NCBI GenBank assembly: GCA_964354805.1
Contig: CAYHBD010000016.1
Coordinates: 68,532-132,531, forward strand
DNA: 64,000 bases
Reading direction: 5' to 3'
Source of the DNA: an uncultured archaeon
GTDB taxonomy: Archaea > Iainarchaeota > Iainarchaeia > Iainarchaeales > GCA-2688035
Every line of letters starts with the position of its first letter. The first letter of the stretch is position 1. This document shows positions 9,147-40,118 of this stretch, piece by piece. A program made the position numbers and the translations under genes. The notes under the pieces were generated by a model that made no database searches, had not been told where the DNA came from, and was given only the letters and a program-made list of their open reading frames with translations.

Positions 9147-9191
9147 CTTTTTTCTTTTGGTACAGCTTTTCTTTTCCTAAAAGAAAAGGTG

Positions 9192-9616: not shown

Positions 9617-9982
9617 TTAGCAGGGGATTAGTGATTCATTTAGATAAATGTTAATTGTTTCAAAATTTGTTTTATCCATAATAAGATCTTTAATTGTTCC
9701 TTCACCACTCCCGGTTAAACCTAATTCACTACATGTTAGTGTATCAGGCTCAGCAGACAAATTAAAATCAATTGTTAAGCCGCTCACTGCTGGCTTTACT
9801 TCGTCAATGTACACAAAGTAATCCAGTTTGCCTGCGTTTTCCACTACCTTAACTTTCAGCAATTCCATTGCTGTTACTGAATCATTTATGTTTGTGTAAT
9901 AGCTTGCAATGGCAATGCTTCCTGCTAAAACAATCAATGCGATTATAAGCAATTCAATGCTAGTCTGCGCTCTGTCATTCAA
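9617..9982 (-). CDS. Type IV pilin-like protein (class III signal peptide, QxSxE)
   Basis: MNDRA/QTSIELLIIALIVLAGSIAIA. Confidence 0.7.
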   Translation of the reverse strand: MNDRAQTSIELLIIALIVLAGSIAIASYYTNINDSVTAMELLKVKVVENAGKLDYFVYIDEVKPAVSGLTIDFNLSAEPDTLTCSELGLTGSGEGTIKDLIMDKTNFETINIYLNESLIPC

Positions 9983-10520
9983 CCTTGATCACTCCAGCGC
10001 TATCTCTTGTTATAGCGTATGCCTTAAATGGTGGGAGTGGGCCTTGGATTTTCAGGCTGGCACAATTGCTCGGCACGGCGGTTTGCAGCAATGCAATTGA
10101 AGCGCTGCACTCAAAGTAAGGGGGTGATCCTATTTCCTCGCACCCCCGGGGTTTCGGTCTTTTTTCATTCATTTTGTTTACATCCACAGTAAAATTAATC
10201 TGGTTTCCACTGCATGAAATGCTTGCCTTGTTTGGAACAAGCAGGTGAATTGTTTTCTTGCTCTCGCCGCTGTTTGCAGCTGCTTCGTTTAAAGCGTTCG
10301 CCAATTTTTGGGCAGAAATTTTTGTATCGCTTACTCTTTGTACATCCTCTGCTGCAACTGTTGCGTCATTTATCAGCGGCCAGACTGTTCCGTAAATGTA
10401 AACAAGCGTGATAACAATCAGCAGAATAAATTCAATGCTGACCTGGCCTTTTTGCCTTTTGGCAAAAACCCCAGGGAAAAATGGCAATTGCTTCGCAATT
10501 GCTTGCCCTCTTTTGTTCAA
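9975..10520 (-). CDS. Type IV pilin-like protein with extended leader containing a repeat element
   Basis: ...KRQKG/QVSIEFILLIVITLVYIYG. I prefer the TTG start at 10518-10520 (giving MNKRGQAIAKQLPFFPGVFAKRQKGQVSIEF). It overlaps the TGA stop of the upstream peptidase gene as TTGA, and it matches the MNKRGQ start of ORF 38211-38615. Confidence 0.6.
   Translation of the reverse strand: MNKRGQAIAKQLPFFPGVFAKRQKGQVSIEFILLIVITLVYIYGTVWPLINDATVAAEDVQRVSDTKISAQKLANALNEAAANSGESKKTIHLLVPNKASISCSGNQINFTVDVNKMNEKRPKPRGCEEIGSPPYFECSASIALLQTAVPSNCASLKIQGPLPPFKAYAITRDSAGVIKVE
10445..10502 (+). repeat. Two-hairpin repeat element, copy inside the pilin-gene 5' end
   Basis: GGCC-TTTTTGCC-tttt-GGCAAAAA-CCCCAGGGAAAAATG-GCAATTGC-ttc-GCAATTGC. 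Confidence 0.7.
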
Positions 10521-16500: not shown

Positions 16501-16636
16501 ACATTAATCCAATAAGAAATAGGCATTCTATTATATAAACTTTTTTTATGCGTTTTGGGGGATGTCATTTGCAATTTTTAAAAAATTTAAATGATATTTT
16601 TTCAATTGAATTAAATTAGAATTAAAGCGCAATTGC

Positions 16637-18364
16637 CTATTTCTTTTCCTTTATTTCCAGCAGCAATTGTTCAATGAATTTTTCCACTTTCACCGGGCCG
16701 ATTACTTTTCCGCTTCTCTCCCTCACAGTAACAGTGCCTTCTTTTTCCTCTTTATCGCCGGCAACCAAAATGTAGGGAACCTTTTGCATTTGCGCGTCCC
16801 TTACTTTTGCTGAAACCGTTTCGGTTCTGTCATCCAGTTCAACCCGCAAGCCCGCTTCCCGCATCTGCTTTACTGTTTTTTCCGCATATGCTTTGTGCCT
16901 GTCCGCTATCGCAATCAATGAAACCTGCACTGGCGCAAGCCATGAAGGAAAAGCCCCGCCATAATGTTCAATCAGTATTCCAAAGAATCTTTCCATTGAA
17001 CCGTAAATTACCCTGTGCAGCATCACCGGTCTTTTTGGCTTGTCATCCCTGTCAATGTAATGCAAATCGAATTTTTCGGGCATGCTAAAATCCAGCTGGA
17101 TTGTTGCGCACTGCCATGTCCTGTCCAAGGCATCCCTAATATGGAAATCGATTTTTGGGCCGTAGAATGCGCCCTCGCCTTCCTTCACTTTGAATTCAAT
17201 TTTTCTTTTCTGCATTGCGTTGCCAAGCGCCTTTTCAGCTTTCTCCCAAATGGCAGCGCTGCCCATCGCGTTTTCAGGCTTTGTGCTTAATTCAACATGG
17301 TATGGAAACCCAAACGTTTTGTAAAAGTGGTCAACCAGTTCAATTATTTTGATTATTTCTTCTTCCATTTGTTCTTCAGTGCAGAAAATGTGTGCATCAT
17401 CCTGGGTGAATTTCCTAACCCTGAACAATCCGTTCAAGACCCCTGATTTTTCATGCCTGTGGACTATTCCCATTTCAGCCATTCTGATCGGTAAATCCCT
17501 GTAGCTGTGCCTTTTCGTTTTGAATATGAGGATGCCTCCAGGGCAGTTCATTGGCTTTACGGCAAAATCCTCATCGTCAATTTTGGTGAAATACATGTTT
17601 TCCTTATAGTGGTCCCAGTGCCCGCTCTGCACCCACAAATCTTTTCGCAGAATAAGCGGGGTGTTTACCTCAACATATCCGGCTTTTGCATGCTCTGCTC
17701 TCCAAAAGTTTGCAAGCTCGTTCCACACAATCATTCCTTTTGGGTGGATGAAAACGCATCCAGGCGCTTCAGGCTGCATGCTGAACAGGTCAAGCTGCTT
17801 TCCAAGCAGCATGTGGTTTCTTTTCTCAGCTTCCTCTTTCCTCTGCACCCACTGCTGCAGCATTTTTTCTTCCGGAAAAGAAATTCCGTAAATCCTCTGC
17901 AGCATTTTGTTTTTCTCGCTGCCCCTCCAGTAAGCGCCTGCAACCCGCAATAATTTAATTGCTTTAATCTGCTCGCTGTTTTCAAGGTGCGGTCCTTTGC
18001 ACAAGTCAGTGAATTCGCCATTGGTGTAAATGGAAACCTTTTTTCCCGGCAATTCATTGATTAATTCAATCTTGTATTGTTGCTCTTTGAACAATTCAAG
18101 CGCTTTCTTTTTGTCAATCTCTTTTTTTTCAAATGCCTGTTTCTCTGCAATTATTTCCGCCATTTTTTTCTCAATACACTGCAGGTCGTCAGGCGTAAAT
18201 GGCCTGCTTGAGTCAAAATCGTAGTAGAAGCCCTCTTCAATTGAGGGCCCGATTGCGAATTTCACATCTGGAAAAAGCAGCTTTACGGCTGCCGCCATCA
18301 CATGGCTGCTGCTGTGCCAGAAGTGCTGCCTGTCCTCTTCCTTGCTCCAGTCGATTTTGCCCAT
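16637..18364 (-). CDS. thrS: Threonyl-tRNA synthetase (no N-terminal TGS domain)
   Basis: 575 aa. HSSSHVMAAAV (editing-domain HxxxH) at residues 17-21, class II core (FRVRKFTQDDAHIF, GAFYGPKIDF) and a C-terminal anticodon-binding domain. Confidence 0.92.
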   Translation of the reverse strand: MGKIDWSKEEDRQHFWHSSSHVMAAAVKLLFPDVKFAIGPSIEEGFYYDFDSSRPFTPDDLQCIEKKMAEIIAEKQAFEKKEIDKKKALELFKEQQYKIELINELPGKKVSIYTNGEFTDLCKGPHLENSEQIKAIKLLRVAGAYWRGSEKNKMLQRIYGISFPEEKMLQQWVQRKEEAEKRNHMLLGKQLDLFSMQPEAPGCVFIHPKGMIVWNELANFWRAEHAKAGYVEVNTPLILRKDLWVQSGHWDHYKENMYFTKIDDEDFAVKPMNCPGGILIFKTKRHSYRDLPIRMAEMGIVHRHEKSGVLNGLFRVRKFTQDDAHIFCTEEQMEEEIIKIIELVDHFYKTFGFPYHVELSTKPENAMGSAAIWEKAEKALGNAMQKRKIEFKVKEGEGAFYGPKIDFHIRDALDRTWQCATIQLDFSMPEKFDLHYIDRDDKPKRPVMLHRVIYGSMERFFGILIEHYGGAFPSWLAPVQVSLIAIADRHKAYAEKTVKQMREAGLRVELDDRTETVSAKVRDAQMQKVPYILVAGDKEEKEGTVTVRERSGKVIGPVKVEKFIEQLLLEIKEKK

Positions 18365-23891: not shown

Positions 23892-24485
23892 ATGGGTGAA
23901 GGGGAAAAAGCCGGAGAGGAAAAGGGCGCTGGCCCAGCTTTTTCAACCAATCAATGGATTGTTGTTGGTTTTCTGTTTGTTTTGTTTTTTGTTTTGCTTA
24001 AAGTACTGAATGTATTAAGGGATGCGGCTAGTTCTATCCCTGTGTTGAACCTGTTTTTTCTCATCCCTGACCCCTTCCAAAGCCCAATGTTTTTTGCTAT
24101 GCCGATTGTGAGCTTTTTCATTATTTTTTTCATAATTGATTGGGCGAATCGCTATTTTGCCACCAAGCACGCCTTGCATCCTGCCTTTATTTTATTGTTT
24201 TTTTTCCTCAGCTTTTTTGCATTCTATGTTGCGCTTTTTTGGTATCATACAGATTTTACCAGGGATAGCAACGTTAAACTTTTAATTTGCGTTTCAGATG
24301 AAATCGGCGGGCCTTTTGGAAAATGCTCTGATATAGCGAACGCATTAATCAAAGAAGGCACTTTTAATCAATACATTTTTATTAATTTCTGGGAAAGGTT
24401 GCATGCAAACGCTTTCATGTTATTCATCTGGGGCGGTGTATTCGGCTGGATAACGCGCTTTGCTGTTGAAAAAATCAAACTGTAA
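23892..24485 (+). CDS. Hypothetical polytopic membrane protein
   Basis: 197 aa with multiple TM helices. No motif recognised. Confidence 0.45.
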   Translation: MGEGEKAGEEKGAGPAFSTNQWIVVGFLFVLFFVLLKVLNVLRDAASSIPVLNLFFLIPDPFQSPMFFAMPIVSFFIIFFIIDWANRYFATKHALHPAFILLFFFLSFFAFYVALFWYHTDFTRDSNVKLLICVSDEIGGPFGKCSDIANALIKEGTFNQYIFINFWERLHANAFMLFIWGGVFGWITRFAVEKIKL

Positions 24486-24533
24486 AAGCCTTTTTTTGCT
24501 TTTGCAAAAAAAAGCCTTGGCACAATGCCAAGC
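24486..24533 (+). repeat. Two-hairpin repeat element, variant copy directly after a stop codon
   Basis: AAGCC-T7GC-tttt-GCA8-GCCTTGG with an alternative second hairpin CTTGGCA-caa-TGCCAAG. Confidence 0.6.
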
Positions 24534-24574
24534 AATGAAACAAAAAACAAATATTCTTTAGCTTGGCATTGTGT

Positions 24575-24643
24575 GGGAAAAATTGCCTTCGGCAAAGCTT
24601 TTTTTCTCACGAAAAAAGCCTTGGGAAAAATTGCCTTCGGCAA
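24575..24643 (+). repeat. Two-hairpin repeat element: half copy (24575-24594) plus full copy (24595-24643); the GGGAAAAATTGCCTTCGGCAAAGC unit repeats at a 48-nt period
   Basis: GGGAAAAATTGCCTTCGGCAA | AAGC-T7C-tcac-GA6GCC-TTGGGAAAAA-TTGCC-ttc-GGCAA. Confidence 0.7.
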
Positions 24644-24679
24644 AGCCTTTTTTTAATTCTTCTCTTCCCCAATTTTTTT

Positions 24680-25927
24680 ATGCACGCATTCGTTTCCGGC
24701 TACGGCTGCAGCTTGAACAAATCAGACACCGAGCAGATTAGGGGCTTTCTTGCAGTGCACGGTTTTCAGTTAGCCGGCAACCCCAACAAAGCTGATTTAA
24801 TTGTAATAAACACCTGTGCAGTGAAAGAGCAGACCGAAGCAAAAATGCTCAAAGCAATAAAGCAATTGAATTCCATTGCAGAGCGCAACGGAAGCAAGCT
24901 GGTTGTAGCAGGCTGCCTTCCCGCAATAAACCCGGATGCAGTCAAAGCAATTTCTGCAAAAATAATTCAAATTGGTCCATCGCTTTCCCAATTAGCTTGC
25001 TTTTTGAATTTGCCTGAAAAAGAATTTTCTCCCCTGCTTGAGGAAATCAAAGAAAATCCACTCATTTCAATTATTCCGATTGCAAGGGGCTGCATTGGCA
25101 ATTGCTCTTACTGCTGCGTTAAAAACGCGAGAGGCAGTCTCCGCAGTTATTCAATAAAGGAATTGAATGAAAAATTCAAAAAAGCAATAAAAGAAACAAA
25201 AGAAATATGGCTTACAGCACAGGACTGCGGCTGCTATGGCTTTGACCAAAACACAAATCTGCCAGCTCTGTTGAAATCTCTTTTGCAAAATAAGGGCGAT
25301 TTCCGAATCAGGGTTGGAATGATTAATCCAGCGCACCTGCACTCTTTTCTCAATCAATACCTTGCCCTCTTCTCCGATGAGCGCTTGTACCGTTTTTTCC
25401 ACATTCCACTGCAGAGCGGCAGCAATGCTGTCCTGCATTCAATGCTGAGGCCTTACAAAAAAGAAGCTTTTTTGTCCCTAGTTAAAAAAATCAGGCAACA
25501 CTTTCCAGATGCAACAATTGCAACAGATGTAATTGCCGGCTTTCCAGGCGAAACAGAACAGCAATTCCAGGAAACGGTTTCTGTTCTCAAAAAAGCGCAT
25601 CCTGACATTGTGAACATTTCGCGCTTTGGAGCAAGGCCAAACACGACCGCCGCCCTAATGCCAGGACGGTTGCATGGGCGGGAGCTGAAGAAGAGAAGCA
25701 GGATTCTAACAGCGCTTTGCAGGGAAATCGCCCTGAAAAGAAACAAGCGCTTTGTCGGCAAAAAAATGCGGATTCTTGTAACGGAAAAGGGCAGCAAAGG
25801 CAGCTTTGTTGGAAGAGCCCAGAACTACAAGCCTGTTGCAATAAAAGAAAACCGCTTAGGCGAATTTGTTAGCGTGCGGATAAATAAAGCTTTTTCAACC
25901 TATTTAAGTGGAACAGTGTTAAGCTAA
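24680..25927 (+). CDS. Radical-SAM methylthiotransferase, MiaB/MtaB (CDKAL1-like) family
   Basis: ATG at 24680 (MHAFVSGYGCSLNKSD...). Radical SAM cluster GCIGNCSYCCVKNARG, and a TRAM-like C-terminus (FVGRAQNYKPVAI). The upstream part of the track ORF is repeat-element sequence. Confidence 0.85.
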   Translation: MHAFVSGYGCSLNKSDTEQIRGFLAVHGFQLAGNPNKADLIVINTCAVKEQTEAKMLKAIKQLNSIAERNGSKLVVAGCLPAINPDAVKAISAKIIQIGPSLSQLACFLNLPEKEFSPLLEEIKENPLISIIPIARGCIGNCSYCCVKNARGSLRSYSIKELNEKFKKAIKETKEIWLTAQDCGCYGFDQNTNLPALLKSLLQNKGDFRIRVGMINPAHLHSFLNQYLALFSDERLYRFFHIPLQSGSNAVLHSMLRPYKKEAFLSLVKKIRQHFPDATIATDVIAGFPGETEQQFQETVSVLKKAHPDIVNISRFGARPNTTAALMPGRLHGRELKKRSRILTALCREIALKRNKRFVGKKMRILVTEKGSKGSFVGRAQNYKPVAIKENRLGEFVSVRINKAFSTYLSGTVLS

Positions 25928-25987
25928 TAGTTTTTTTTATTTTCAACCTATTTAAGCGGAACTGTCTTGCCTGCAATAGTTTTTTTA
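25893..25987 (+). repeat. Imperfect tandem duplication (about 47 nt, two copies) spanning the 3' end of the methylthiotransferase gene
   Basis: TTTCAACCTATTTAAGTGGAACAGTGTTAAGCTAATAGTTTTTTTT followed by TTTCAACCTATTTAAGCGGAACTGTCTTGCCTGCAATAGTTTTTTT. Confidence 0.7.
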
Positions 25988-26069
25988 ATATTCTTTACTA
26001 AGTAATATTAATTCAGAAAGTAAACTTTTGGAAAAAGTTTAACCAAAAAGCTTTACCTGGGGTGTTTCA

Positions 26070-26828
26070 TTGCTTTTCGTCAATGTTTTGGAGCAGTATA
26101 AGGCGAATGCAAAAACCTTGCTGGTGTTTGCCCTATTGCTGGTTTTTGTCCTTGCTTTTGTGGCAGTGCAGCCTGTTTTTTTCAGCAGCGGCAGCGTTTT
26201 TCTGGACTACAATCTTGCGACAGCCGACTTATGGCAACTGCTTCCAGCCGCAGCATTTATTGCCCTGTTTTTGGCTTTTTACTCTTTTTTTATTTCAATC
26301 ATTTTGTTCAGTGTCAGAAACAGCCTGAGCAGGCTGAGGCAGCATTACTACCTGCATGAAATGATGCAGCGCTTTACGCTGAAAATTTTTATTTTTTATT
26401 TGTTATTCTGTTTTCTGCTGTTTCTGCTTGTCACTGGCTTGCTTTTCTTGGGCGTTCAGATTGAATTAATCAATGTCATTGTTCTTCTGGTTTCAGTTGC
26501 CCTGCTTTTTGTCCCGCAGGCAATTGTTGTTGACGAGGAAGGCTTGCGCTATGCGATTTCTAGCAATTTTGATTTCATTGCAAAAAACAAAGGCGCTGTG
26601 CTGACTGTGCTCATTGTCGGCTGCGTAATGCTTGCAGCCCTGCAATTGGTTGAGTTTGCAATAGACCAAATTGCATTAATCGGCTCGCTTGTTTCCCTTT
26701 TCATTGCACTTGTATTCATTCTGCCGTTCATTGAAATAATGAAAACATACTTTTACATGATGCGCTTTGAGCTGATAAAGGGCCATGAGGTTGCGAGGAG
26801 GAAAAAGCCGCATCCAGCGAGGCATTAG
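26070..26828 (+). CDS. Hypothetical polytopic membrane protein
   Basis: 252 aa with about 6 TM helices. No motif recognised. Confidence 0.45.
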   Translation: MLFVNVLEQYKANAKTLLVFALLLVFVLAFVAVQPVFFSSGSVFLDYNLATADLWQLLPAAAFIALFLAFYSFFISIILFSVRNSLSRLRQHYYLHEMMQRFTLKIFIFYLLFCFLLFLLVTGLLFLGVQIELINVIVLLVSVALLFVPQAIVVDEEGLRYAISSNFDFIAKNKGAVLTVLIVGCVMLAALQLVEFAIDQIALIGSLVSLFIALVFILPFIEIMKTYFYMMRFELIKGHEVARRKKPHPARH

Positions 26829-26941
26829 TTGCTAACAAAGCCACTTTAAAAATCTTTCTTTAACTTCCCTTATTTTTTAATTACCAAACCGTTTTTTTCA
26901 GAAAACAAACTTTTAAATAAACTTTTTTTCAGATTATTAAT

Positions 26942-27000
26942 AAGCCTTTTTCACTTCCGTGAAAAAGCCTTGGGAAAAAGGGCAATTGCTTCGCAATTGC
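26942..27000 (+). repeat. Two-hairpin repeat element, copy upstream of the Lrp/AsnC gene
   Basis: AAGCC-TTTTTCAC-ttcc-GTGAAAAA-GCCTTGGGAAAAAGG-GCAATTGC-ttc-GCAATTGC. Confidence 0.75.
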
Positions 27001-27026
27001 AAAGATTTTTTATTTGGGGGGATGAA

Positions 27027-27500
27027 ATGCAGGCAGCTTTTGACAAAACTGATTTAATAATCCTAAAAAGCCTGATGCACGATGGCAGGGCAAGCTTCAG
27101 CAGCATTGCGAAGGAAACGGCTTTAACCGATGTCGCAATAAAGAAGAGGGTTGAAAGCCTGCGGAGAAGGGGCATTGTCAGCAGCATTACGGCGAACCTG
27201 AACTATAAGGCCCTCGGCTTTGAAAACCCAATTTTTGTCCAAATCCGTAGCGAGATTGGAAAAAACAAGGATTTGATTAAAAAAATGGAGAACTTTGACC
27301 ACATAATCGAATTATACCAAGTGCTTGGTGAATACAACTTGCTGGCAAAAATGGTTGTGAACGATTTAAGCGCAGCGGAAAAAGTGATAAGCAAACTCGG
27401 CCTGATCGACGGCGTGCTTGATGTCAAAGCGCTGGTTGTATTGAACGAACTAAAGCAGGGCAAAGTACTGCCCTCAACAGCGCTGCAGAGAAAATTGTGA
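27027..27500 (+). CDS. Lrp/AsnC-family transcriptional regulator
   Basis: ATG at 27027. DKTDLIILKSLMHDGRASFSSIAKETALTDVAIKKRVESLRRRGIV (HTH) plus a RAM-like C-domain. Confidence 0.8.
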   Translation: MQAAFDKTDLIILKSLMHDGRASFSSIAKETALTDVAIKKRVESLRRRGIVSSITANLNYKALGFENPIFVQIRSEIGKNKDLIKKMENFDHIIELYQVLGEYNLLAKMVVNDLSAAEKVISKLGLIDGVLDVKALVVLNELKQGKVLPSTALQRKL

Positions 27501-28205: not shown

Positions 28206-30524
28206 ATGATTCTGATAATTGCGGAGAAAGCTATTGCCGGGCGAAGAATTGCGGGAATTCTTGCTGGTGAAAGGCATTTGGAGAAAGCGAGCGCTGGGGC
28301 AATCTATTTTGATTTCGAGCAGAAGGGGCAGCAATACAGCGTTGTTCCATTGCGGGGGCACATTGTTGACGTGGATTTTCCAGTTAAATACAGCCAGTGG
28401 CTTGGGACAGATTTGCGGAAGCTTGCTGAAAGCGAAATAGAATACATTGAAACAGAGAAAACAATTGCAGGCCTTTTGAAGAGAATCGCGCCCCTTGTTG
28501 AAGAGGCCATTGTTGCAACTGATGACGATAGGGAAGGGGAATCAATCGGCCTGGAAGCAATTGAAATACTGCATAGTGTTAACAAAAAAATCCCTGTAAA
28601 GAGAATGAAGTTCAGTGCAATAATTGAACAGGAAATAAAACCGGCTTTCGCTGCCCTGCAGCCGCTGGACAGGAACCTTGCTGAAAGCGCCAATGCAAGA
28701 AGGGAAATAGACCTTGTCTGGGGTGCTGTCCTGACAAGATTCCTCTCGCTTATTTCAGGTCAGCTTGGAAAACAGTTCCTCAGCATGGGCAGAGTTCAAG
28801 GCCCTACGCTTGGCTTGATTGTTGACAGGGAAAAGGAGAGAATGGCGTTTGAATCAAAAAAGTACTGGATAGTGCAGGCGCTTTTTGAAAAAGACAAGCA
28901 GCAATTCATTGCATTGCACAAGAAAGGCAGGTTCTGGGAAAAGGGGGAAGCTGAGAAAGCAGCCCAGTGCAAAAAGGCAAAAGAGGGGACAGTGCAGCAG
29001 GTAAAGAAAACAAAAAAGGTTCTAAGCCGGCCTGTTCCGTTCAACACAACCCTTTTCCTGAGGGCAGCAACAGCAATCGGCTTCAGTGCCGGAAGGGCAA
29101 TGCAGATTGCCGAGACTCTTTACCAGCAGGGCTTAACCAGCTATCCGAGAACAGACAACAGCGTTTACCCGCCAGCGCTTGATTTGAGGGCAATTTTAAG
29201 CCAGCTGGCAACAGTGCACCAGTTTGCTCCAATGGCAGGGCAATTGCTTAACCAGAAAAAACTTGAAGCAAGCAAGGGCACTTTTGCAAAAGACCATCCT
29301 CCGATTCACCCTGTTGCAGCGCCATCGCGCCAGCTGCAGGCTGATGAGTGGAGAATCTACGAGCTGATTTGCAGGCGCTTTATGGCAACGCTTGCTGAAG
29401 ATGCTTTAACGGAGAACCTTGCTGTTGAAATAGAGCTGGCAAAAGAACTGTTTGTTGCAAACGGGCAGCGTTATTTGAGCAAGGGCTGGAAGCTATTCTA
29501 TCCTTACAGCAAGGCTGAGGAAACAATTCTGCCAGTGCTGCAGAAAGGCGACAAGGTTCTGCTTGTCAAATTGGATATGCTGGCGAAGGAAACACTGCCG
29601 CCTCCTAGATACAGCCAGGGTGCTTTGATTAAGGAAATGTCAGATTTGAATTTGGGCACGAAAGCAACCAGGGCTGAAATAATCCAGAAGCTTTATGCAA
29701 GAAAATACATTTCAGGGCAGAAGGCAATTGAGCCAAACAAGATTGCTTTTGCAGTGATTGATTCGCTTGAGAAATACGATGGCGTTGTTGTTAAGCCAAA
29801 GATGACTGCCGATCTGGAAAAAGAGATGGATACTGTTGCTGAAGGAAAGAAAGAGAAAAAAGCTGTTGTTGACGAAAGCAGGCAGTTCCTTTCGAGCGCT
29901 TTGCAGCAGCTGTTGCAGAATAAAAACGAGATTGGTTCAATGCTGCGCGCTGCTTTGAGGGCCGATGCAATAATCGGCAAGTGCACAAAGCCTGGATGCG
30001 ATGGCGAGCTTTTGATGAGGCATGGCAGGACTGGAAAGCGTTTCCTAGGCTGCTCTGCTTATCCAAAATGCACTAACACTTTCCCTCTGCCGCAAAAGGG
30101 CAGCATAACTGTTCTGCAAAAGCGGTGCGATGCCTGCGGCAATTTCATGATTCAAGTTGGCGGCAGAAGATACAGGTTCAGCATGTGCATTGACCCGAAC
30201 TGCAAAAGCAAGGATGAGTGGAAGAAAAAGCGCGAAGAGAGGATCAGGGCGCAGGGAGAGAAAGAAGCAGCTGAGAAAGCCGCAGAAAAGAAAGTTGTTG
30301 AAGAAGCTGCAGAAAAGAAAGCAGCTGAGAAAGGTGCTGGAAAGAAAGTTGCTGAAAAGGGTGCAGAAAAGAAAGTGGCCGAAGATGGTGCCGGAAAAAT
30401 TAAAGAATTGAAAGCGCTTCCCAAAAAGAAAAAGGCAAAAAGCAGCAAGCTGAAAGAAACAGGGCAAGTAGCAGAGAAAAAGAAAAAAATCAAGGAATTT
30501 AAAACCGCGAGCCCAAGCGAGTGA
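28206..30524 (+). CDS. topA: DNA topoisomerase I (type IA) with C-terminal zinc ribbons and a Lys/Ala/Glu-rich tail
   Basis: TOPRIM LIIAEKAIAGRRIA...ATDDDREGE, active-site region SYPRTDN, Zn ribbons CTKPGCDG...CSAYPKC and CDACG...CIDPNC, then AAEKK-type repeats. Confidence 0.9.
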   Translation: MILIIAEKAIAGRRIAGILAGERHLEKASAGAIYFDFEQKGQQYSVVPLRGHIVDVDFPVKYSQWLGTDLRKLAESEIEYIETEKTIAGLLKRIAPLVEEAIVATDDDREGESIGLEAIEILHSVNKKIPVKRMKFSAIIEQEIKPAFAALQPLDRNLAESANARREIDLVWGAVLTRFLSLISGQLGKQFLSMGRVQGPTLGLIVDREKERMAFESKKYWIVQALFEKDKQQFIALHKKGRFWEKGEAEKAAQCKKAKEGTVQQVKKTKKVLSRPVPFNTTLFLRAATAIGFSAGRAMQIAETLYQQGLTSYPRTDNSVYPPALDLRAILSQLATVHQFAPMAGQLLNQKKLEASKGTFAKDHPPIHPVAAPSRQLQADEWRIYELICRRFMATLAEDALTENLAVEIELAKELFVANGQRYLSKGWKLFYPYSKAEETILPVLQKGDKVLLVKLDMLAKETLPPPRYSQGALIKEMSDLNLGTKATRAEIIQKLYARKYISGQKAIEPNKIAFAVIDSLEKYDGVVVKPKMTADLEKEMDTVAEGKKEKKAVVDESRQFLSSALQQLLQNKNEIGSMLRAALRADAIIGKCTKPGCDGELLMRHGRTGKRFLGCSAYPKCTNTFPLPQKGSITVLQKRCDACGNFMIQVGGRRYRFSMCIDPNCKSKDEWKKKREERIRAQGEKEAAEKAAEKKVVEEAAEKKAAEKGAGKKVAEKGAEKKVAEDGAGKIKELKALPKKKKAKSSKLKETGQVAEKKKKIKEFKTASPSE

Positions 30525-32411: not shown

Positions 32412-35400
32412 ATGCCGGAGAAAAGCATTGAATTGAGGGTTGCAGACCCTGACCCAACGCATGTTGGAAGGAACATTGTCACTCTGGACAGGGAGACAAA
32501 GCAGGCGCTTAGCATTACCTCTGGCGACATTGTGGAAGTGGAAGGAACAAAAAAGACCGCCGCAATTGTCTGGCCAGCAAGGGCAGAGGATGAAAGCAAA
32601 AAGATTGTGCGGATGGACAACTTCATCAGGCACAATGCTGGCGTTGGCTTGGGCGAAAAGGTTGCCGTAAGAAAGTGCGAGCCAAAGGAGGCAAAGAAGG
32701 TTGTGCTTGCACCAAGTCAGGAAATTCGCATTATCGCCAGCGGCTTTGAGAGGATTTTGAAGAAGAACTTTTTGGGCAGGCCCCTGACTATTGGGGACAG
32801 CGTTTGGATTAGCGTTTTCGGCAGCGGCTTTGTTTACAGGGTGATTGACACCAACCCGAGAGGCATTGTGAAAGTAACTGATTTCACCCAGTTTTCTTTA
32901 AAGGAAAAGCCAGTGAAGGGCGAGCTTGAGGCAATTCCAAGGATTGCATACGAGGACATTGGCGGCCTTGACGAGCTGATTCAAAAGGTTCGAGAAATGG
33001 TTGAACTGCCGATGAAGCACCCTGAGTTGTTCAGAAGGCTTGGCATTGTTCCGCCCAAGGGCGTTTTATTGCACGGCCCTCCCGGCTGCGGAAAAACACT
33101 GCTTGCAAAAGCTGTTGCAAACGAAACACAGGCGCACTTCATTTCAGTGAATGCCCCTGAAGTAATGTCAAAGTATGTTGGGGAAGCAGAAGAGCGCATT
33201 AGGCAGATGTTCAAGGACGCCGAAGAAAACGCGCCAAGCATTATTTTCATTGACGAGATTGATGCAATCGCGCCAAAAAGAGAGGAAGTGATTGGGGAAG
33301 TGGAGCGAAGGGTTGTTGCCCAGATTCTTGCTTTGATGGATGGCCTTGAGGCAAGGGGCAATGTCATTGTTATTGCTGCGAGTGTAACTGGTGACACTCC
33401 TGTGTTGGTTAAGAAGGGGGGTGTTATTCAACTAGCTACAATTGGGGAAGTGGTTGACCCATATTATGCGGATGGGGGGGAAGGCATCCAAAAAGACGCC
33501 AGCGACTTGGAAGTTCTTGGGATGAAAAAGTTGGTTGCCAAACACAATTTGCCTTGGACTTGCTTTGGTGGAAGCAAATTCCAGCCGGTAAAAGCGGTGT
33601 TTAGGCATAGGGTTGCTGAAATTTATGAAATTGATTTTAATGGCGGAAAAATCAAGACAACCGGCAACCACTCAGTCTTTGTTAGAACTAGGAATGGCAT
33701 TCGGGCTAAAAGAGTTGACGATTTGAGTTTGAATGATGTTTTGGTTGATTTGCCATATAAGGTTAATCGGACTACCCCTGCTAAAATGGAAGTCAGGGCG
33801 CATGAATTCGCTTTGAGTGAAACTCCAATTAAACTTCCAGTTTATGGCAGTGAAGTTCAAGAGATGTATGCATTGGCAGTAGCAAGACAAATTAGTCCAC
33901 AGCAAGTTTCTAAAACAATGGGCGTTCATGTTACAACCGCGTATGGCTGGCAGCGGGGTGACAGAAAGCCAGACTTTTGCAGGTACCACGAGGCAGGCAT
34001 CCCAAACGAAGTAATTATCACGCCTGAATTGATGAAATTGTTTGGATATTATGTTGCCGAAGGTTATGCCAGATCGGAACTTGATTTCTGTTTCGGCGCC
34101 AAGGAGACGCATTTAATTGATGATGTTAGGAGTTCCATGAAATTAGTTTTCAATGTTGAACCTGATTCAATCATTGTTACAAATAATCGTTGTAACATTG
34201 TTTATCACAAAAAACCTTTGGCAGATTTTTTTGCAAGGCATTGCGGTAAGGGTGCCCGCAACAAAAGGCTTGCCTCATTCTTTTTCGAACTACCCAAAGA
34301 ATATTTCCTAAGCTTCTTGCAGGCATACATTGACGGAGATGGTTACGAAGACAAAAACGGAAGGCTGGAGGCAACATCAGTAAGCAAATCGCTTATCTGG
34401 GAACTGAACTGGCTTTGCAGGATGCACGGAATCAAATCCTATATTCACCAGTTTACCGCCAAAGAGGGAAGAACAATTAAAGGCGGAAAACCATTGAAAA
34501 AGACACTCGCATATCGCTTAGGTATCGGGAAAACCAACAATCCGTTCAGACTTTGCAAAAAAGTGCCGGCTCAAGGCTTGGCCAGAATTAAAAAAATCGC
34601 CAAAAAACAGTTTGACGGTTTCGTTTACGACCTGTGCGGTTGTGAAGAGGAAGCATTTTTTGGTGGTGAAGCCCCCATTTTGCTCCACAACACAAACAGG
34701 GTTAATTCAATTGACGAGGCATTGAGAAGGCCGGGCAGATTTGACAGGGAGATAGAGTTCCCTGTTCCTGACAAGGAAGCGAGGAAAGAGATTCTCGCAA
34801 TTCATACAAGGGGAATGCCTATCCACCCGCCGCTTGATTTTGAGTATTTGCGCGAGCTGGCTGAAAAAGAGAACGGCAAGTTTTTGTCAAAGCAAACAAT
34901 GGAGCAATTGGCAAAGCTGGTGAAAAAACCAGGCGATGAAAAAGAATTCTTTGCCTCTTTGGATGAAAAGGCAAAGGCAGAGGTAACAGAAGCCCTCAGG
35001 GACAAAATGCTTGAATACTTTGCTTCAATAACACACGGCTTTGTCGGGGCTGACCTTGCTGCTTTGGCAAAAGAGGCAGCAATGAAGGCGCTGAGGCGCT
35101 ATCTGCCAAAGATTGATTTGGAGGATGAGAAAATCCCCCCTGAATTATTGGAATCAATGGAAGTCAACAAAAGGGATTTCATTAATGGATTGAAGGATGT
35201 TCAGCCAAGCGCACTGAGGGAAGTGACGATTGAAGTTCCGAATGTCAAATGGGGGGACATCGGTGACTTGGAGGATGTAAAAGAGGAACTGAAGCAGGCT
35301 GTTGAATGGCCTTTAAAGCACCCCGACAGCTTTAAAAAAATGGGCATAAGGCCGCCCGCCGGTGTGCTATTGTTCGGGCCGCCTGGTTGCGGAAAAACAC

Positions 35401-36068
35401 TGCTTGCAAAAGCTGTTGCAACTGAAAGCGAGGCAAACTTTATTTCGATCAAGGGCCCGGAACTTTTGTCGCTTTGGGTTGGAGAATCGGAAAGAGGAGT
35501 TCGAAAGGTTTTCAGGAGAGCGCGGCAGGTTGCCCCCTGCATTGTTTTCTTTGACGAAATTGATTCAATTGCAGGCAGAAGAGGCATGGGCGCAGACAGC
35601 CATGTGACAGAAAGGGTTGTAAACCAGCTGCTTACAGAATTGGATGGAATTGAGCAGAACAGAAACGTTGTTTTTCTGGCTGCAACAAACAGGCCTGACC
35701 TGCTCGATCCTGGCCTGCTTAGGCCAGGCAGAATAGACAAGCTGATTAAGATTGATGCACCGGATGAAAAAGGCAGGCTTGCAATATTCAAGGTTCACAC
35801 AAAGAATGTCAGCCTTGCAAAGGATGTTTCTCTTGAAGAGCTTGCAAAGAAAACAGCCGGCTTCAGCGGAGCAGACATTGAAGGGCTTGTAAGGGAGGCA
35901 GCTTTGATTGCATTGAAGGAAAACAAGCTGGTTCCAAAGCCAGTTGAAAAAACTCACCTTGAGCAAGCGCTTGCGGAAGCGAAAGCAAGCATTTCCCCAA
36001 AGGTTGAAGAAGCATACGAAGAATTCGAAGAGCACCTCAGCGAATTCAAGCCGAGCTACGTTGGTTAG
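32412..36068 (+). CDS. cdc48: CDC48/VCP-like AAA+ ATPase (two AAA domains) interrupted by an intein in D1
   Basis: CDC48 N-domain. D1 Walker [16 protein letters not shown] and Walker [12 protein letters not shown]2 [15 protein letters not shown] and [10 protein letters not shown]. The conserved VIVIAATNRP is split as VIVIAA|S...HN|TNR. Confidence 0.92.
33381..34691 (+). mobile_element. Intein (437 aa) with LAGLIDADG homing-endonuclease domain, inserted at the sensor-1 ATN motif of CDC48 D1
   Basis: Block [11 protein letters not shown] (Ser1), block [20 protein letters not shown] motifs [11 protein letters not shown] and [12 protein letters not shown]-terminal FVYDLCG...ILLHN followed by the +1 Thr. 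Removing 33381-34691 restores [27 protein letters not shown]. Confidence 0.85.
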
Positions 36069-36075
36069 ATGCCTC

Positions 36076-36654
36076 CTAAGGCGGGATAGGAACCATAAGC
36101 CACCCTATAATGGCTGAGAAGAAAACCGCTGCCCAAACAGAGGCGTTCCAGGCAAGAACTTTTTTTCCATCAAGTAACCAGACCGGCAGCATGTTGAACA
36201 TTGCCAGGAAAAAATTGATGTAGGCAGTGTAGAAGAATATCATGTTCAGCCAAGAGCTAAGGTTTAACAGCAGCAACAGAGAAAAAATAACCCCCAGTAC
36301 AACGTTTATTGCTGGCCCTGCAACCGAAATTATTCCGTTTTGCCTTCTGTCCAAGTTTCCTAGAATGTATGTGGCGCCAGGCATTGCAAATATGAGTCCA
36401 ATTAATGATAAAAAAACTGCAAAAATGAGACCCGGCTGCCAAGCCCTGTATTCTGAGTGAAATCCAAATTTTCTTGCGACGTTTCTGTGGGCCATTTCGT
36501 GTAAAACAAACGCTGTTCCAACACCAACCAAAGCCAGAGGAAACGCTTGGGGAAAGCCAGTTAGACCTAAAAACCCTCCGCTAAGGGCAATTGCAAACGC
36601 AACGCTCAGCGTCAGCCAGCTGATAATTAAATCGTTCCTCTCCCTTGCATTCAT
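36076..36654 (-). CDS. Site-2 protease-family (M50) membrane metalloprotease
   Basis: HEMAHR zinc motif in a TM helix and NMLPVWLLDG (NxxPxxxLDG). Confidence 0.7.
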   Translation of the reverse strand: MNARERNDLIISWLTLSVAFAIALSGGFLGLTGFPQAFPLALVGVGTAFVLHEMAHRNVARKFGFHSEYRAWQPGLIFAVFLSLIGLIFAMPGATYILGNLDRRQNGIISVAGPAINVVLGVIFSLLLLLNLSSWLNMIFFYTAYINFFLAMFNMLPVWLLDGKKVLAWNASVWAAVFFSAIIGWLMVPIPP

Positions 36655-36702
36655 AAGCCTTTTTCACTCCGTGAAAAATCCTTGGGGAAAATCGCCTTTG
36701 GC
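36655..36702 (+). repeat. Two-hairpin repeat element, copy abutting the M50 protease start codon
   Basis: AAGCC-TTTTTCAC-tcc-GTGAAAAA-TCCTTGGGGAAAATC-GCC-ttt-GGC. Confidence 0.65.
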
Positions 36703-36810
36703 ATGCAAATTTTTTATTGAAAAAGAATTAAAAACCAAGCCGCTCATTTTCTTCGTTTTTTGCCGAATTAACTGCATGGTTTTTATATCTTGCCAAAGGG
36801 TGCTTTTTTT

Positions 36811-37014
36811 ATGGCTAAAATGTTTTCTTGGTTAAGGGATTGCCTGCTGGACAGAAGGGCGCAGATTTCAGTGGAACTGATAATCATCATGGCGGCTGTT
36901 GTTGCACTGGTCCTGATGCTCGTGAGCCAGCTGCAGTCAACAGGCACTGATGCAAATAAGAAAATTGGAGAGAAAGCCGAAGATGTCTTCAAGAAAATTG
37001 AGGAAATCAAATAA
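36811..37014 (+). CDS. Small type IV pilin (class III signal peptide)
   Basis: MAKMFSWLRDCLLDRRA/QISVELIIIMAAVVALVLMLV. ATG at 36811 preferred over the TTG at 36790. Confidence 0.6.
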   Translation: MAKMFSWLRDCLLDRRAQISVELIIIMAAVVALVLMLVSQLQSTGTDANKKIGEKAEDVFKKIEEIK

Positions 37015-37029
37015 AAACAGTGTTCCAAA

Positions 37030-37443
37030 ATGCACAGCAGCAGAGGCCAGCTTAGCTTGGAGTACCTGATTTTGTTGGCTGCTGTTCTAGCTGTTTTTGC
37101 CATGCTGCTGCCGCTTCTTAGCAGCATTTACTCGCACGGATTGTTTGCCTTGGACTCAATCAACGCAAAGCAGTTCGCTGTTTCAATGCAGCAGCACGTT
37201 GACGAAATGCAATTTCAGGCGGACGGCGCGATTGCTTCATTCAGCGTAAAACCGTTTAAAGTGTGGGGTATCAGGAGCGATGCCAAGCAATTCCTTGTCA
37301 CAGTGCCTGACCCTGAAGGGAAGCCAAAAGAATTCGCAGTAAACTTTCCAAACGAAATCGAATTGCTGCCTGCGACAGTTGCAAAAGAAACGCATTTTGT
37401 GGTGCAAAAGCAATCAGGCAGAATCCTGCTTGAATACAACTAG
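37030..37443 (+). CDS. Type IV pilin-like protein (class III signal peptide)
   Basis: MHSSRG/QLSLEYLILLAAVLAVFAMLL. Confidence 0.65.
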   Translation: MHSSRGQLSLEYLILLAAVLAVFAMLLPLLSSIYSHGLFALDSINAKQFAVSMQQHVDEMQFQADGAIASFSVKPFKVWGIRSDAKQFLVTVPDPEGKPKEFAVNFPNEIELLPATVAKETHFVVQKQSGRILLEYN

Positions 37444-37776: not shown

Positions 37777-38227
37777 ACACGCTCACCGCCACAAGCCCTT
37801 TCACGCCATTCAGCAAAACAAGCCTGTCCAAAGCAATACAGTTTTTGCCTGCAGGGCCCTCAAAAAAACCCTGTTCAATCCCAAACTCATCCTTAAAAGA
37901 AACCCTGCTGACAAAAAAGCCATCTTTCTCAAATTGCTCTGCCCTGCTGAGCAGAACGCTGTCCAAATTATTGCTCAAAACCCTGTGCTTCTCTGCATCA
38001 AACAAGGCGCTTCCAAGCAAGGGTTGCTCTGCATCATTGTTCTTAACCAGGCTGTCAGCCAAAAATATTGCGTTCCTCTGCAAATCAAATCTGTTGATTG
38101 ATTCAACCTGCTGGTCCTTCAAAACGCTGGCATGCATCAAAATCAGCAAAACCATCAACAGCATTGCAATAAAAGAAACCGCCAAATCAATAGAGAAAAT
38201 AAACCCACGTTCACCGGTAATGTTCAT
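37766..38227 (-). CDS. Type IV pilin-like protein
   Basis: MNITGERG/FIFSIDLAVSFIAMLLMVLLIL. Confidence 0.6.
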   Translation of the reverse strand: MNITGERGFIFSIDLAVSFIAMLLMVLLILMHASVLKDQQVESINRFDLQRNAIFLADSLVKNNDAEQPLLGSALFDAEKHRVLSNNLDSVLLSRAEQFEKDGFFVSRVSFKDEFGIEQGFFEGPAGKNCIALDRLVLLNGVKGLVAVSVCEK

Positions 38228-38615
38228 TTGGGGTTACCTCCAGCTTGTTGCCCTGCTCTCTTTCAACAGTCTTAAGCAGGGGCGCAATGCACTGCGTTTT
38301 CTTCATTTTTTCGCCTTCGCTGCTTTCAACCACGTTTTCATTTGCACTGCAAGGCATTGCAGGCAGCAATTCTTTCACATTGCCACTGTACAAAGCGTCT
38401 GCCCCAATGCAGCAAAACTCAGTGGCAGCTTTTGCCTTGAGTGCGGCAACGGCATCCTGCGCCTCTGTGTTCATGTTGTTCACGCTGTGCAGCATTATCG
38501 CCAACAGCGCGAGAAAAACGCAGAAGCAAGCAATTGCCTCAAGCTGTAACTGGCCTTTTTTGTTGATACAAAAAAGCCCAGGGAAAAATTGCTTCGCTTG
38601 GCCCCTTTTGTTCAT
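38211..38615 (-). CDS. Type IV pilin-like protein with extended leader containing a repeat element
   Basis: MNKRGQAKQFFPGLFCINKKG/QLQLEAIACFCVFLALLAIML. Confidence 0.6.
   Translation of the reverse strand: MNKRGQAKQFFPGLFCINKKGQLQLEAIACFCVFLALLAIMLHSVNNMNTEAQDAVAALKAKAATEFCCIGADALYSGNVKELLPAMPCSANENVVESSEGEKMKKTQCIAPLLKTVEREQGNKLEVTPNEHYR
38552..38597 (+). repeat. Two-hairpin repeat element, copy inside the pilin-gene 5' end (second hairpin degraded)
   Basis: GGCC-TTTTTTGT-tgat-ACAAAAAA-GCCCAGGGAAAAATT-GC-ttc-GC. Confidence 0.65.
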
Positions 38616-39236: not shown

Positions 39237-39983
39237 TCAACGAAATTGTTTCTTGGCCTTGCTTGCAGTGAACCCAATCAGCAATGCAACGACCACAATT
39301 GCTGCAACCAAAGCTGCAATTTTCAGCAAAGGTGCTTCATACTGTATTGCAGGGCATTGGGCGCTTGGGCATTGTATTGCGCTGCATTGTGTTTCAGCAG
39401 CTGGTGCCGTTGGCTGCTTTTCAATGCCAATTATTTCTAAACCGTTTCCATCAGCCTCGCTTGTTTTCCCAGTTGCCGCAGGCGCGTTCTGGTCAGCCGC
39501 GGTTATGCCTATGACATTCTCGCTTTTACCTGCTTCTTTTTCTCCGCCGGCAGGTGCGGCAATGCATGGCACGGCATTGGGCGCTTCTGTTATGGTCGGC
39601 ACCCTGCTTTCAGCCTGCAGCATTTGCCCTGGTGCTTGACTGCCGACTGTTAAAAGCAATCCGTACAATAAGCCAACCATTACTACAGCGCTTATAGCCA
39701 AAACAATTAGGACATTTGCCGGCGCTTCTGTTGCGAAAATATTTTTTCCCTTTCTTGTGAGGGTGTAATACTTCCACTTCCTGCCTTCGTCCAGCCCTTC
39801 AATCAGCCCTGCCTGCTGCAGTATGTCCAGGTGCTGTTTTATTGTCGGCGCAGCCATGTCCAGCTTTTTGCTTAACTCTGTAAGGGTGTGGTTTCTTTCC
39901 CGCAGCAGTTTAATCATTTCAGTCCTTGTTTCACTGGCAAGGGCTTTGAATTCGTTGTTTGAAATTGCAATAGAGCTATCCAT
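39237..39983 (-). CDS. ArsR-type winged-helix regulator fused to two TM helices flanking an Ala/Pro/Cys-rich segment
   Basis: ALASETRTEMIKLLRERNHTLTELSKKLDMAAPTIKQHLDILQQAGLIE...KWKYYTLTRKG, TM helix ANVLIVLAISAVVMVGLLYGLLL and C-terminal TM helix LLKIAALVAAIVVVALLIGF. ATG at 39983 preferred. Confidence 0.7.
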   Translation of the reverse strand: MDSSIAISNNEFKALASETRTEMIKLLRERNHTLTELSKKLDMAAPTIKQHLDILQQAGLIEGLDEGRKWKYYTLTRKGKNIFATEAPANVLIVLAISAVVMVGLLYGLLLTVGSQAPGQMLQAESRVPTITEAPNAVPCIAAPAGGEKEAGKSENVIGITAADQNAPAATGKTSEADGNGLEIIGIEKQPTAPAAETQCSAIQCPSAQCPAIQYEAPLLKIAALVAAIVVVALLIGFTASKAKKQFR

Positions 39984-40100: not shown

Positions 40101-40118
40101 GACCCTTGCACATTTCTT

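Follow-up and report, generated by a model that had tools for sequence, protein, structure and literature searches.

The bacterial repetitive extragenic palindromic (REP) elements that carry GTAG or CGTC tags, and their arrays of bacterial interspersed mosaic elements (BIMEs), have been described by Di Nocera et al. (2013; PMC3733652) in an account that also mentions the Rickettsia palindromic elements. Some of the tagged-REP and Rickettsia-type families have no known transposase and also occur within genes (PMC3733652). Here we analyze a family of palindromic repeat units whose closest analogues are these two bacterial groups and which is represented in a 64,000-nucleotide (nt) stretch of DNA, hereafter the window, from an uncultured archaeon (GCA_964354805.1, contig CAYHBD010000016.1, positions 68,532 to 132,531 of the forward strand). 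Among the loci and protein matches retrieved, those closest to the window bear the labels Candidatus Iainarchaeum or Diapherotrites. The genomes of DPANN archaea are tiny and streamlined, and few repeats are usually expected in them. The unit is about 45 to 60 bp long and is composed of an AAGCC tag, a long A/T-rich hairpin (hairpin 1), the linker GGGAAAAA, and a short GC-rich hairpin (hairpin 2). We consider it likely that the units are REP-like, non-autonomous, insertion-polymorphic mobile palindromic repeats. The initial annotation of this DNA had proposed an element resembling REPs or miniature inverted-repeat transposable elements (MITEs), or a mobile structured module, and that proposal is now supported by further copies, by covariation, and by empty orthologous sites.

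The likeness to REP elements lies in short palindromes with a tag at one end, in a mostly extragenic siting that is often 3' of genes, and in arrays whose number of units varies between relatives; the stems are maintained by compensatory change, and some REP families likewise have no known dedicated transposase. High copy number, extragenic siting, arrays, and between-relative variation of the REP type are all found in the DPANN family, with some copies intragenic. The differences are structural as well as taxonomic. The DPANN tag is AAGCC, lies within the stem, and takes part in a conserved C.C mismatch, whereas the REP tag is GTAG or CGTC; the DPANN main stem is made of T/A runs with a variable apex of 1 to 4 bp, whereas a REP is a G+C-rich imperfect palindrome of 20 to 40 nt; and the DPANN unit has a second hairpin with its linker and forms arrays of one orientation, whereas REP units alternate. 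The hosts are archaeal, and no REP-associated tyrosine transposase (RAYT) was found in the window open reading frames (ORFs), in about 1 Mb of loci, or among 150 neighboring ORFs. The Rickettsia palindromic elements, which Ogata and colleagues reportedly described in 2000, are said to be bacterial elements of 100 to 150 bp that occur in frame in protein genes and also in RNA genes. The DPANN units resemble them as selfish palindromes of a reduced genome that are tolerated in frame in protein genes and in RNA genes, but are shorter, and their in-frame copies lie in the cleaved class III signal peptide of pilin-like proteins.

Other mobile systems are less close. Unlike classical MITEs, the DPANN unit has no terminal inverted repeats, no fixed-length target duplication, and no related insertion sequence that we could find. 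Insertion sequences of the IS200/IS605 family move by single-strand HUH transposition. The PATEs of haloarchaea are miniature elements derived from this family (PMC6006769), and both share with the DPANN unit the lack of terminal inverted repeats or classical target duplication, the hairpins near the ends, and apparently the insertion beside a short specific sequence. The local same-strand bias of the window would also fit single-strand transposition. However, the hairpins differ widely in sequence from one DPANN copy to the next, which makes an enzyme that reads them by sequence difficult to envisage; no IS200/IS605-type Y1 transposase or TnpB was found in the sequence searched, and orientation is mixed on other contigs. 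Integron attC sites combine a variable sequence with a conserved fold and conserved ends, and a conserved unpaired base makes their two strands differ. The DPANN unit is alike in all these respects, but it has neither gene cassettes nor an integron integrase, is much shorter, and is dispersed through the genome. The DPANN-wide archaeal range, the A/T-rich mismatched stem, the in-frame residence in signal peptides, and the presence in tRNA introns are unusual features of the family.

A palindromic element that is common to several DPANN phyla yet gained and lost between close relatives would provide a new handle on genome change and raises the mechanistic question of how such a unit moves with no visible transposase. 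If true, this reading would offer a concrete route to new tRNA introns, longer signal peptides, and rewired promoters, leaders, and gene ends. The covariance model could be used for repeat annotation, for flagging likely assembly break points, and for strain typing in metagenomes.

Anatomy and covariation of the unit

The covariance model (R1) covers the first 38 positions of the unit (AAGCC, hairpin 1, and GCCTTGGGAAAAA) and rests on 15 copies, of which 14 come from other genomes and one is the window copy at 26942. A scan of the window with filters off gave seven matches (E ≤ 3.5e-4; 28 to 62 bits), all on the plus strand, at 10446, 24486, 24595, 26942, 36655, 38553, and 40053, and the next-best match reached 18 bits. 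Eight copies had been counted in the initial annotation. All are present in the sequence, but they amount to seven units at six loci, because the "variant" at 24486 to 24533 and the "half" at 24575 to 24594 are one unit split by a nested palindrome. The remark that every copy lies on the plus strand holds for all seven units in the window but is not general, since a contig of the metagenome-assembled genome (MAG) SO_2017_SWC_5 carries units in mixed orientation. The contexts that had been listed were recovered as described: the unit at 24486 comes straight after a stop codon, the one at 36655 borders a start codon, and those at 10446 and 38553 each lie within the 5' end of an ORF.

Hairpin 1 is an imperfect palindrome of 13 to 16 bp that runs in order through AAGCC, five to seven T residues, a variable apex of 1 to 4 bp, a loop of 3 to 4 nt, five to seven A residues, and GCCTT. 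The fold first drawn for it is borne out, but the real stem is longer than had been noted, with AAGCC and GCCTT pairing at the base as A-U, A-U, G-C, a conserved C.C mismatch, and C-G, as seen from folding and pair counts. The two pilin copies swap AAG...CTT for CCTGG...CCAGG or CTGG...CCAG, and the base of the stem is still paired. Hairpin-1 loops on the plus strand are often of the UNCG type. Hairpin 2 tends to close with a GC pair over a 3-nt loop, most frequently the TTC already reported. A perfect stem of 4 bp or more is present in 57 of 84 unique copies, whereas the best stem in shuffles averages 1.6 bp. In arrays, which are seen in the window and in L001, L024, L043, L122, and L233 (L numbers denote loci from other genomes or metagenomes, and P numbers denote orthologous proteins), the next AAGCC and T-run comes directly after hairpin 2. 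The ends of the unit, AAGCC plus T-run on the left and hairpin 2 followed by AAGCC on the right, are direct and not inverted repeats of each other.

Covariation was evaluated on 76 distinct sequences drawn from the window and the DPANN loci. Standard pairs are formed in 99.2% of cells across the eight core pairs of hairpin 1 and in 98.2% across the 12-pair extended helix that includes AAGCC/GCCTT. Changes on both sides of a pair were found in 72 core cells versus 18.5 in shuffles (72 to 74 versus about 18 across both helix definitions). The covariation score was 0.246, compared with about 0.01 to 0.03 when the partner was slid by one to three columns, and was reached by none of the 500 shuffles. 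The alignment had been fitted to the model, which favors structure, and a plain pattern parse of the same copies gave the same result. The compensatory stem changes that had been taken as selection for the fold exceed both the shuffle and the slide controls. The stems are nearly pure Watson-Crick (475 of 480 pairs), with two G.U pairs and three other mismatches, and we lean toward a selected form that is DNA, or toward selection on both strands, because wobble pairs are so scarce. A choice of strand from G.U versus A.C mismatches was abandoned, as five mismatches in 480 pairs are too few.

Filled and empty sites among close relatives

Empty orthologous sites were found at five of the six window loci in relatives that are 70 to 88% identical, namely upstream of the MiaB-like gene, in the Lrp leader, at the M50 start, and in two pilin signal peptides. 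The presence/absence differences between relatives that the initial annotation had named as a check are thus found at these loci, and array length varies as well. Units are shown to be gained or lost between close relatives and to form arrays of variable length. About 40 kb of L110, L121, L124, and L125 hold no copies, versus seven in the 64-kb window.

The array that precedes the MiaB-like gene adjoins the stop codon of the ORF at 23892 to 24485. The 5' part of its first unit (24486 to 24520, plus strand; 34 bits with R1) reads AAGCC-T7-GC-TTTT-GC-A8-GCCTTGG, and the 3' part (24574 to 24595, plus strand) consists of (T)GGGAAAAA and hairpin 2, TTGCC-TTC-GGCAA, which together with its T-run scores terminator-like on both strands. 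Between GCCTTGG and GGGAAAAA lies the nested palindrome (24521 to 24573, plus strand), 53 nt that read directly as 13-bp arms, CACAATGCCAAGC and GCTTGGCATTGTG, around a 27-nt loop. The same nested palindrome sits at the identical internal point in unrelated loci from other samples (L202, approximately 550 to 605; L226, approximately 1103 to 1155), and this recurrence shows that variant lineages are copied to new sites and not reinvented. The second unit (24595 to 24643, plus strand; 45.3 bits) reads AAGCT-T6-C-TCAC-G-A6-GCCTTGGGAAAAA-TTGCC-TTC-GGCAA. It runs into a terminal tag and T-run, AAGCC-TTTTTTTAATTC (24642 to 24660, plus strand), delimited by comparison of the window with L121 and L122, whose counterpart in the empty allele is AACGGC-TTTTTTAATTT. 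The T-run of this tag lies at -31 to -24 relative to the MiaB-like ATG at 24680, and since that spacing matches the usual archaeal TATA spacing, the terminal tag is the probable B recognition element (BRE) and TATA box of a leaderless mRNA. A general role of AAGCC plus T-run as a promoter was rejected, the spacing being wrong for the M50 gene and the checked tRNA genes and plausible for the MiaB terminal tag only.

The number of units at this site differs in each relative. L121 (86% protein identity) has none and reads stop-AACGGC|TTTTTTAATT...ATG with a 37-nt spacer, the window has 2.5 units in 194 nt, and L122 and L123 (88% identity) have about five in 297 nt. An orthologous unit of the site reads C-TCAC-G in the window versus CC-TCAC-GG in L122, a paired insertion on both arms.

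The unit in the Lrp/AsnC leader (26942 to 27005, plus strand; 62 bits) reads AAGCC-T5-CAC-TTCC-GTG-A5-GCCTTGGGAAAAA-GG-GCAATTGC-TTC-GCAATTGC-AAAGA, and is followed by a T-run, the Shine-Dalgarno-like GGGGGGAT, and the ATG at 27027. Its fold z-scores are -2.6 on the plus strand and -3.7 on the minus strand. The empty leaders read ..ATTATTAAT-ACGC|TTTTTTATTGGG in L121 and ..AAT-ATC|TTTTTGG in L122, and the window has the 64-nt unit in addition. The M50 unit (36655 to 36704, plus strand; 41.6 bits) abuts the start codon of the M50 protease gene (36076 to 36654, minus strand) in a divergent region. On the opposite side is a pilin-like gene starting at 36811 (plus strand), which was set by comparison with L124 and L214 and replaces the gene call at 36783 to 37127 (minus strand). 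In L124, L125, and L214 the TATA-proximal sequence runs directly to ATGAA, whereas the window has 50 more bases; read on the M50 strand, the insert encodes a 17-codon upstream ORF (uORF; MPKAIFPKDFSRSEKGL) whose TGA overlaps the M50 ATG (ATGA).

Two units lie antisense in pilin-like ORFs. The first (unit A, 10442 to 10508, plus strand; 28.5 bits), in the ORF at 9975 to 10520 (minus strand), has CCTGG-CC-T5-GCC-TTTT-GGC-A5-CC-CCAGG as hairpin 1, then the linker GGGAAAAA, hairpin 2 as GCAATTGC-TTC-GCAATTGC, and TTGCCC. Its RNA fold z-scores are -4.85 (plus) and -3.38 (minus), and the insert of 60 nt adds 20 in-frame codons (AIAKQLPFFPGVFAKRQKGQ). Orthologues P0002, P0005, and P0007 read MNKRGQ|VSIEF and are free of the insert, as is the corresponding DNA in L110, L111, and L113; P0003 has 16 extra in-frame residues where the window has 20. 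The second (38550 to 38603, plus strand; 36.3 bits), in the ORF at 38211 to 38615 (minus strand), reads CTGG-CC-T6-G-TTGATA-C-A6-GC-CCAG-GGAAAAA-TTGC-TTC-GC-TTGGCC, and its 48-nt insert equals 16 in-frame codons (AKQFFPGLFCINKKGQ) that are missing from both L124 (MMHRGQ|LQLEAI) and L125 (MKNSGV|LQLEAM). The reverse case is found in L214, where a pilin-like gene carries a sense-strand in-frame copy and the window counterpart (start 36811) is empty. In L103, a filled segment adjoins an empty paralogous segment. L112 (200 to 400) has a relic of a pilin start (ATGAACAAAAGAAGGCAGGCAAGCATTGAATTT, MNKRRQASIEF...*) at the stop codon of the prepilin peptidase gene, upstream of a filled pilin gene; as the relic precedes the filled gene, the inserted unit there is bracketed by a direct repeat about 30 nt long.

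The sixth locus is the unit at 40053 to 40100 (plus strand; 51.4 bits), which reads AAGCC-T5-GC-TTCC-GC-A5-GCCTTGGGAAAAA-GA-GCC-TTC-GGC and is located between two minus-strand genes, GHL15-like (40119 to 41876) and ArsR-type (39237 to 39983). In L015 the ArsR orthologue is not preceded by an element, but it has other genes as neighbors. One further hairpin in the window resembles the element (9147 to 9191, minus strand; weak R1 matches of about 12 bits). It reads ACC-TTTTCTTTT-AGG-AAAAGAAAA-GC..., lies directly after a stop codon, and is possibly a degenerate relative of the unit. The hairpin and its immediate flanks are identical in L110 (6262 to 6300; about 70% protein identity), and L086 has a full element at the matching intergenic site.

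Distribution in DPANN archaea and tRNA-linked copies

An exact scan for the 18-mer AAAAAGCCTTGGGAAAAA, with one genome per species, identified at least 109 loci, about 45 of them in DPANN MAGs among the matches listed. Within these listed matches, the full architecture is present in MAGs labelled Iainarchaeota, Micrarchaeota, Aenigmatarchaeota, Nanoarchaeia, Woesearchaeota, and Altiarchaeota and in unclassified archaea, and one MAG has at least 20 exact-core loci. The model matches total 85 in the window and the 45 DPANN loci, which together with an independent metagenome seed bear out the expectation of further copies elsewhere. This seed comprised the left half only (AAGCC-T6-N4-12-A6-GCC), and a right half of the TTGGGAAA type was found in 40 of its 129 matches, in 33 of the 53 with a palindromic middle versus 7 of the 76 without. 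Because the right half tracks the palindromic middle, the two halves belong together and the family is large. The 71 bacterial and viral loci with the 18-mer score at most 30 bits and are without the architecture. A viral or plasmid origin was rejected, as none of the seven exact 18-mers in IMG/VR has the hairpin architecture (0/7), and chance similarity is ruled out by the model E-values, the shuffles, and the linkage of left and right halves. The statement in the initial annotation that the repeat belongs to no described family agrees with our searches. Rfam 15 gave no match at gathering thresholds over the whole window and chance-level matches only at E ≤ 5 over 24400 to 27100; literature searches by sequence string or topic found no published description, which is an absence from the searched libraries and not proof that the family is undescribed.

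Long variants occur in MAG SO_2017_SWC_5 (L042, 447 to 538; L067, 7150 to 7241; L014, 5423 to 5512; L051, 134 to 225; L041, 6747 to 6836; L016, 919 to 1011). They have about 50 nt with two extra hairpins, AGAGATGCT..AGCATCTCT and CTGAACC..GGTTCAG, between the hairpin-1 region and AAAAAGCCTTGGGAAAAA.

No window copy is near or inside a tRNA or tmRNA gene, but other genomes have units directly 3' of tRNA ends in both orientations as well as units inside tRNA genes. A sense-oriented unit forms a T-loop insert of tRNA-Ala in L094 (6340 to 6560, minus strand; GGC) and L093 (5460 to 5680, minus strand; CGC), and in both cases ARAGORN restores the tRNA-Ala when the insert is removed. In L092 (3880 to 4020, plus strand), a tRNA-Pro (TGG) read by eye has a unit in its 37/38 intron, where the ARAGORN calls are mixed. 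Similar T-loop inserts were seen by eye in L094 (approximately 5300 to 5420, minus strand), L048 (1700 to 1920, minus strand), and L059 (300 to 520, minus strand), for which ARAGORN did not restore the tRNA. The hosts of interrupted tRNAs are Micrarchaeota, Woesearchaeota, and Iainarchaeota MAGs, with several interrupted tRNAs in one MAG. A different arrangement is found in L001 (1140 to 1360), L024 (3280 to 3420), L076 (1 to 300), and L083 (1530 to 1700), where three features succeed one another after a complete tRNA: a hairpin, a unit in reverse orientation, and a perfect 20-nt copy of the tRNA end from T54 onward. The periods in L076 are in tandem and 91 nt long, and L067 (5190 to 5290) has a similar 17-nt duplication of T-arm-like sequence with no tRNA evident alongside. 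These tRNA-end duplications, which concern a minority of copies, look like the att duplications of T-loop-type site-specific integration.

Proposed movement, rival explanations, and other features of the window

In most of the seven mapped junctions, a small sample, the insert is bordered on the right by GC(C) or by something tag-like and then a T-run; examples are AACGGC-TTTTTT, ACGC-TTTTTT, GCC(C)-TCTTTT, and GCAAA-TTTTTT, which resemble the start of the unit itself. At the left junction, at most 3 to 5 bases are shared (CAT, CTG/GCC). Over all junctions, repeats range from CAT, GCC/TGGCC, and CGGC up to AAGCC plus T-run, reach 17 to 20 nt near tRNAs, and are absent at most copies. A universal long target duplication was discarded, being present at about eight loci only. 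At most of the mapped junctions, new copies are thus shown to sit immediately 5' of host GC(C) plus T-run motifs that resemble the unit start, and motifs of this kind are frequent in promoters, in terminators, and in lysine-rich signal-peptide codons. It is also shown that copies persist where they do little harm, namely in intergenic regions, in 5' leaders, where one forms a coupled uORF, in frame in class III signal peptides (in either orientation), and in tRNA introns.

Copying would probably act on single-stranded or extruded DNA, by means of an enzyme supplied in trans or by homology-guided copying at the AAGCC plus T-run end, and the hairpins may be retained because this process needs them. 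Such an enzyme might recognize GC(C) plus T-run; in homology-guided copying, the AAGCC plus T-run that follows a donor unit would anneal to a host site of similar sequence. In units located after a gene, the T-runs that flank the hairpins on both strands may act as a leaky bidirectional terminator or a transcript-end hairpin, and side effects of the units on transcripts can be expected. A bolder version, which we put forward tentatively and consider less probable than not, is that the family represents structure-defined mobile DNA across DPANN phyla that spreads with no conventional transposase and is an active source of new tRNA introns, uORFs, and in-frame peptide insertions. Movement would then depend either on homology-guided copying at AAGCC plus T-run ends or on an unrecognized enzyme for which the mismatched (C.C) AAGCC/GCCTT stem is the signal. 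An autonomous parent element between paired copies (L008, L009) was considered and rejected, the ORFs there being small membrane proteins and a TrmB-like regulator.

Several observations weigh against mobile repeats. The units have no terminal inverted repeats, and their flanking duplications are short and ambiguous (CAT, GCC, TGGCC) or of the tRNA type (17 to 20 nt), so no standard transposition chemistry fits. Pfam searches found no transposase, integrase, or HUH family among about 50 window ORFs, and in a pooled Pfam scan of the 150 ORFs that lie no more than 2.5 kb from copies, no transposase or integrase family recurred; IS608, IS200, and RAYT queries gave no tblastn match in about 1 Mb of loci. 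"Empty" sites could in principle be precise losses, and the site at 9147 to 9191 retains an element-like hairpin across relatives (L110 and L086). Conservation of the core motif extends over several DPANN phyla, a range that is not usual for selfish repeats and may point to a host function, and the lineage names of the hosts are MAG labels, with the bins taken as given.

The most serious competitor is a host cis element, a standard bidirectional terminator or 3'-end stabilizer, perhaps bound by a factor through AAGCC and GCCTTGGG. Much of its appeal comes from siting and composition: T5-7 runs adjoin the hairpins on both strands, hairpin 2 plus T-run scores terminator-like on both, seven loci start at or overlap a stop codon, copies lie directly 3' of tRNA ends in either orientation, and, of 32 placeable loci, 29 have a gene 3' end facing them on one side or both (12 convergent, 17 tandem, and 3 divergent, by crude ORF calls). 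The core is also kept across DPANN classes, and one orthologous site is kept in three genomes (window 9147 to 9191, L110, and L086). Archaeal termination, moreover, requires U-rich tracts only (PMC7515710). On the other side, pairing at the apex of hairpin 1 serves no purpose in oligo-T termination, its T-run being 5' of the hairpin. Transcription has to pass through four of the six window loci (two pilin ORFs, the M50 start, and the Lrp leader), no gene ends near the M50 copy, which lies in a divergent region, and sense-strand copies occur inside tRNA introns. Close relatives use a plain T-run at the same sites without the element, and one site holds 0, 2.5, or about 5 units. Terminators are not insertion-polymorphic, share no 18-nt core across phyla, and are not expected in tRNA introns, leaders, or ORFs. 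Units located after a gene may plausibly act as terminators, but since four of six window loci must be read through, one is in a divergent promoter region, and close relatives lack the element, termination is unlikely to be the reason for the family. A pure terminator or regulatory motif is unlikely, and we regard a host cis element of this kind as improbable.

The tRNA-linked copies suggest two further origins, to each of which we give very little credence. The units could be an RNA-level mobile module tied to tRNA splicing, in which units arise in or spread by way of bulge-helix-bulge (BHB) introns whose RNA is excised, possibly as circles, and reinserted or copied back into DNA. Sense units in T-loop inserts (L094, L093) and in the 37/38 intron (L092), with the by-eye cases at the second L094 site, L048, and L059, would fit, as would the frequent UNCG-type loops of hairpin 1 on the plus strand, and for other archaea there are proposals that introns transpose (review, PMC4090602). 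But most copies are intergenic or in mRNAs with ends that lack the BHB motif, copies occur in both orientations relative to transcription, and two G.U in 480 pairs is atypical of RNA-selected helices; Pfam scans revealed no reverse transcriptase in the window ORFs and none recurring among neighboring ORFs. Equally remote, in our estimate, is that the units are scars or miniature forms of tRNA-targeting integrative elements, i.e., att remnants of a tyrosine recombinase that were then dispersed by recombination. The 20-nt tRNA-end duplicates (L001, L024, L076, L083) are the identity block expected of T-loop-type integration, and a related model exists for Caldiarchaeum (PMC3293823). Long flanking repeats, however, are present at only about 8 of about 80 copies, the segment between the repeats (about 60 to 130 bp) is too small for a double-stranded circle, no recurring integrase family was found among the 150 ORFs near copies, and none of the window copies lies near a tRNA.

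The window has a G+C content of 43%, and its GC skew mirrors gene orientation, the direction of replication not being readable from it. Housekeeping genes include those for ThrRS, PheRS alpha and beta, the small and large RFC subunits, Nre, and a type IA topoisomerase, and the window also encodes an intein-containing CDC48, an archaeal prepilin peptidase, and type IV pilus genes. The CDC48 homologue (32412 to 36068, plus strand) has 1,218 amino acids (aa) and an intein with a LAGLIDADG domain, whereas the orthologues in L124 and L125 have 724 aa and are intein-free. Weak LAGLIDADG_3 matches were found in two ORFs (50909 to 52177, plus strand; 59288 to 60283, minus strand) that may be homing-endonuclease remnants; the second sits between the PheRS beta and alpha genes and overlaps the beta start. 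The C-terminal tail of the topoisomerase IA gene contains a coding repeat (30257 to 30391, plus strand) with a 27-nt period, lysine/alanine rich and of the (A/G)EKKxAE type. Three large paralogous minus-strand genes (585, 916, and 762 aa) are GHL15 or GH20b-like or have no Pfam match, and at least the first is missing in L015, L124, and L214. The trio shares a conserved 96-nt 3' end (40118 to 40213, 43893 to 43988, and 55307 to 55402) and a conserved 49-nt upstream segment (TCAATTAGAATAAG...AATAAAAATTT) at 41868 to 41916, 46628 to 46676, and 57571 to 57619, which is also present at 16598 to 16646.

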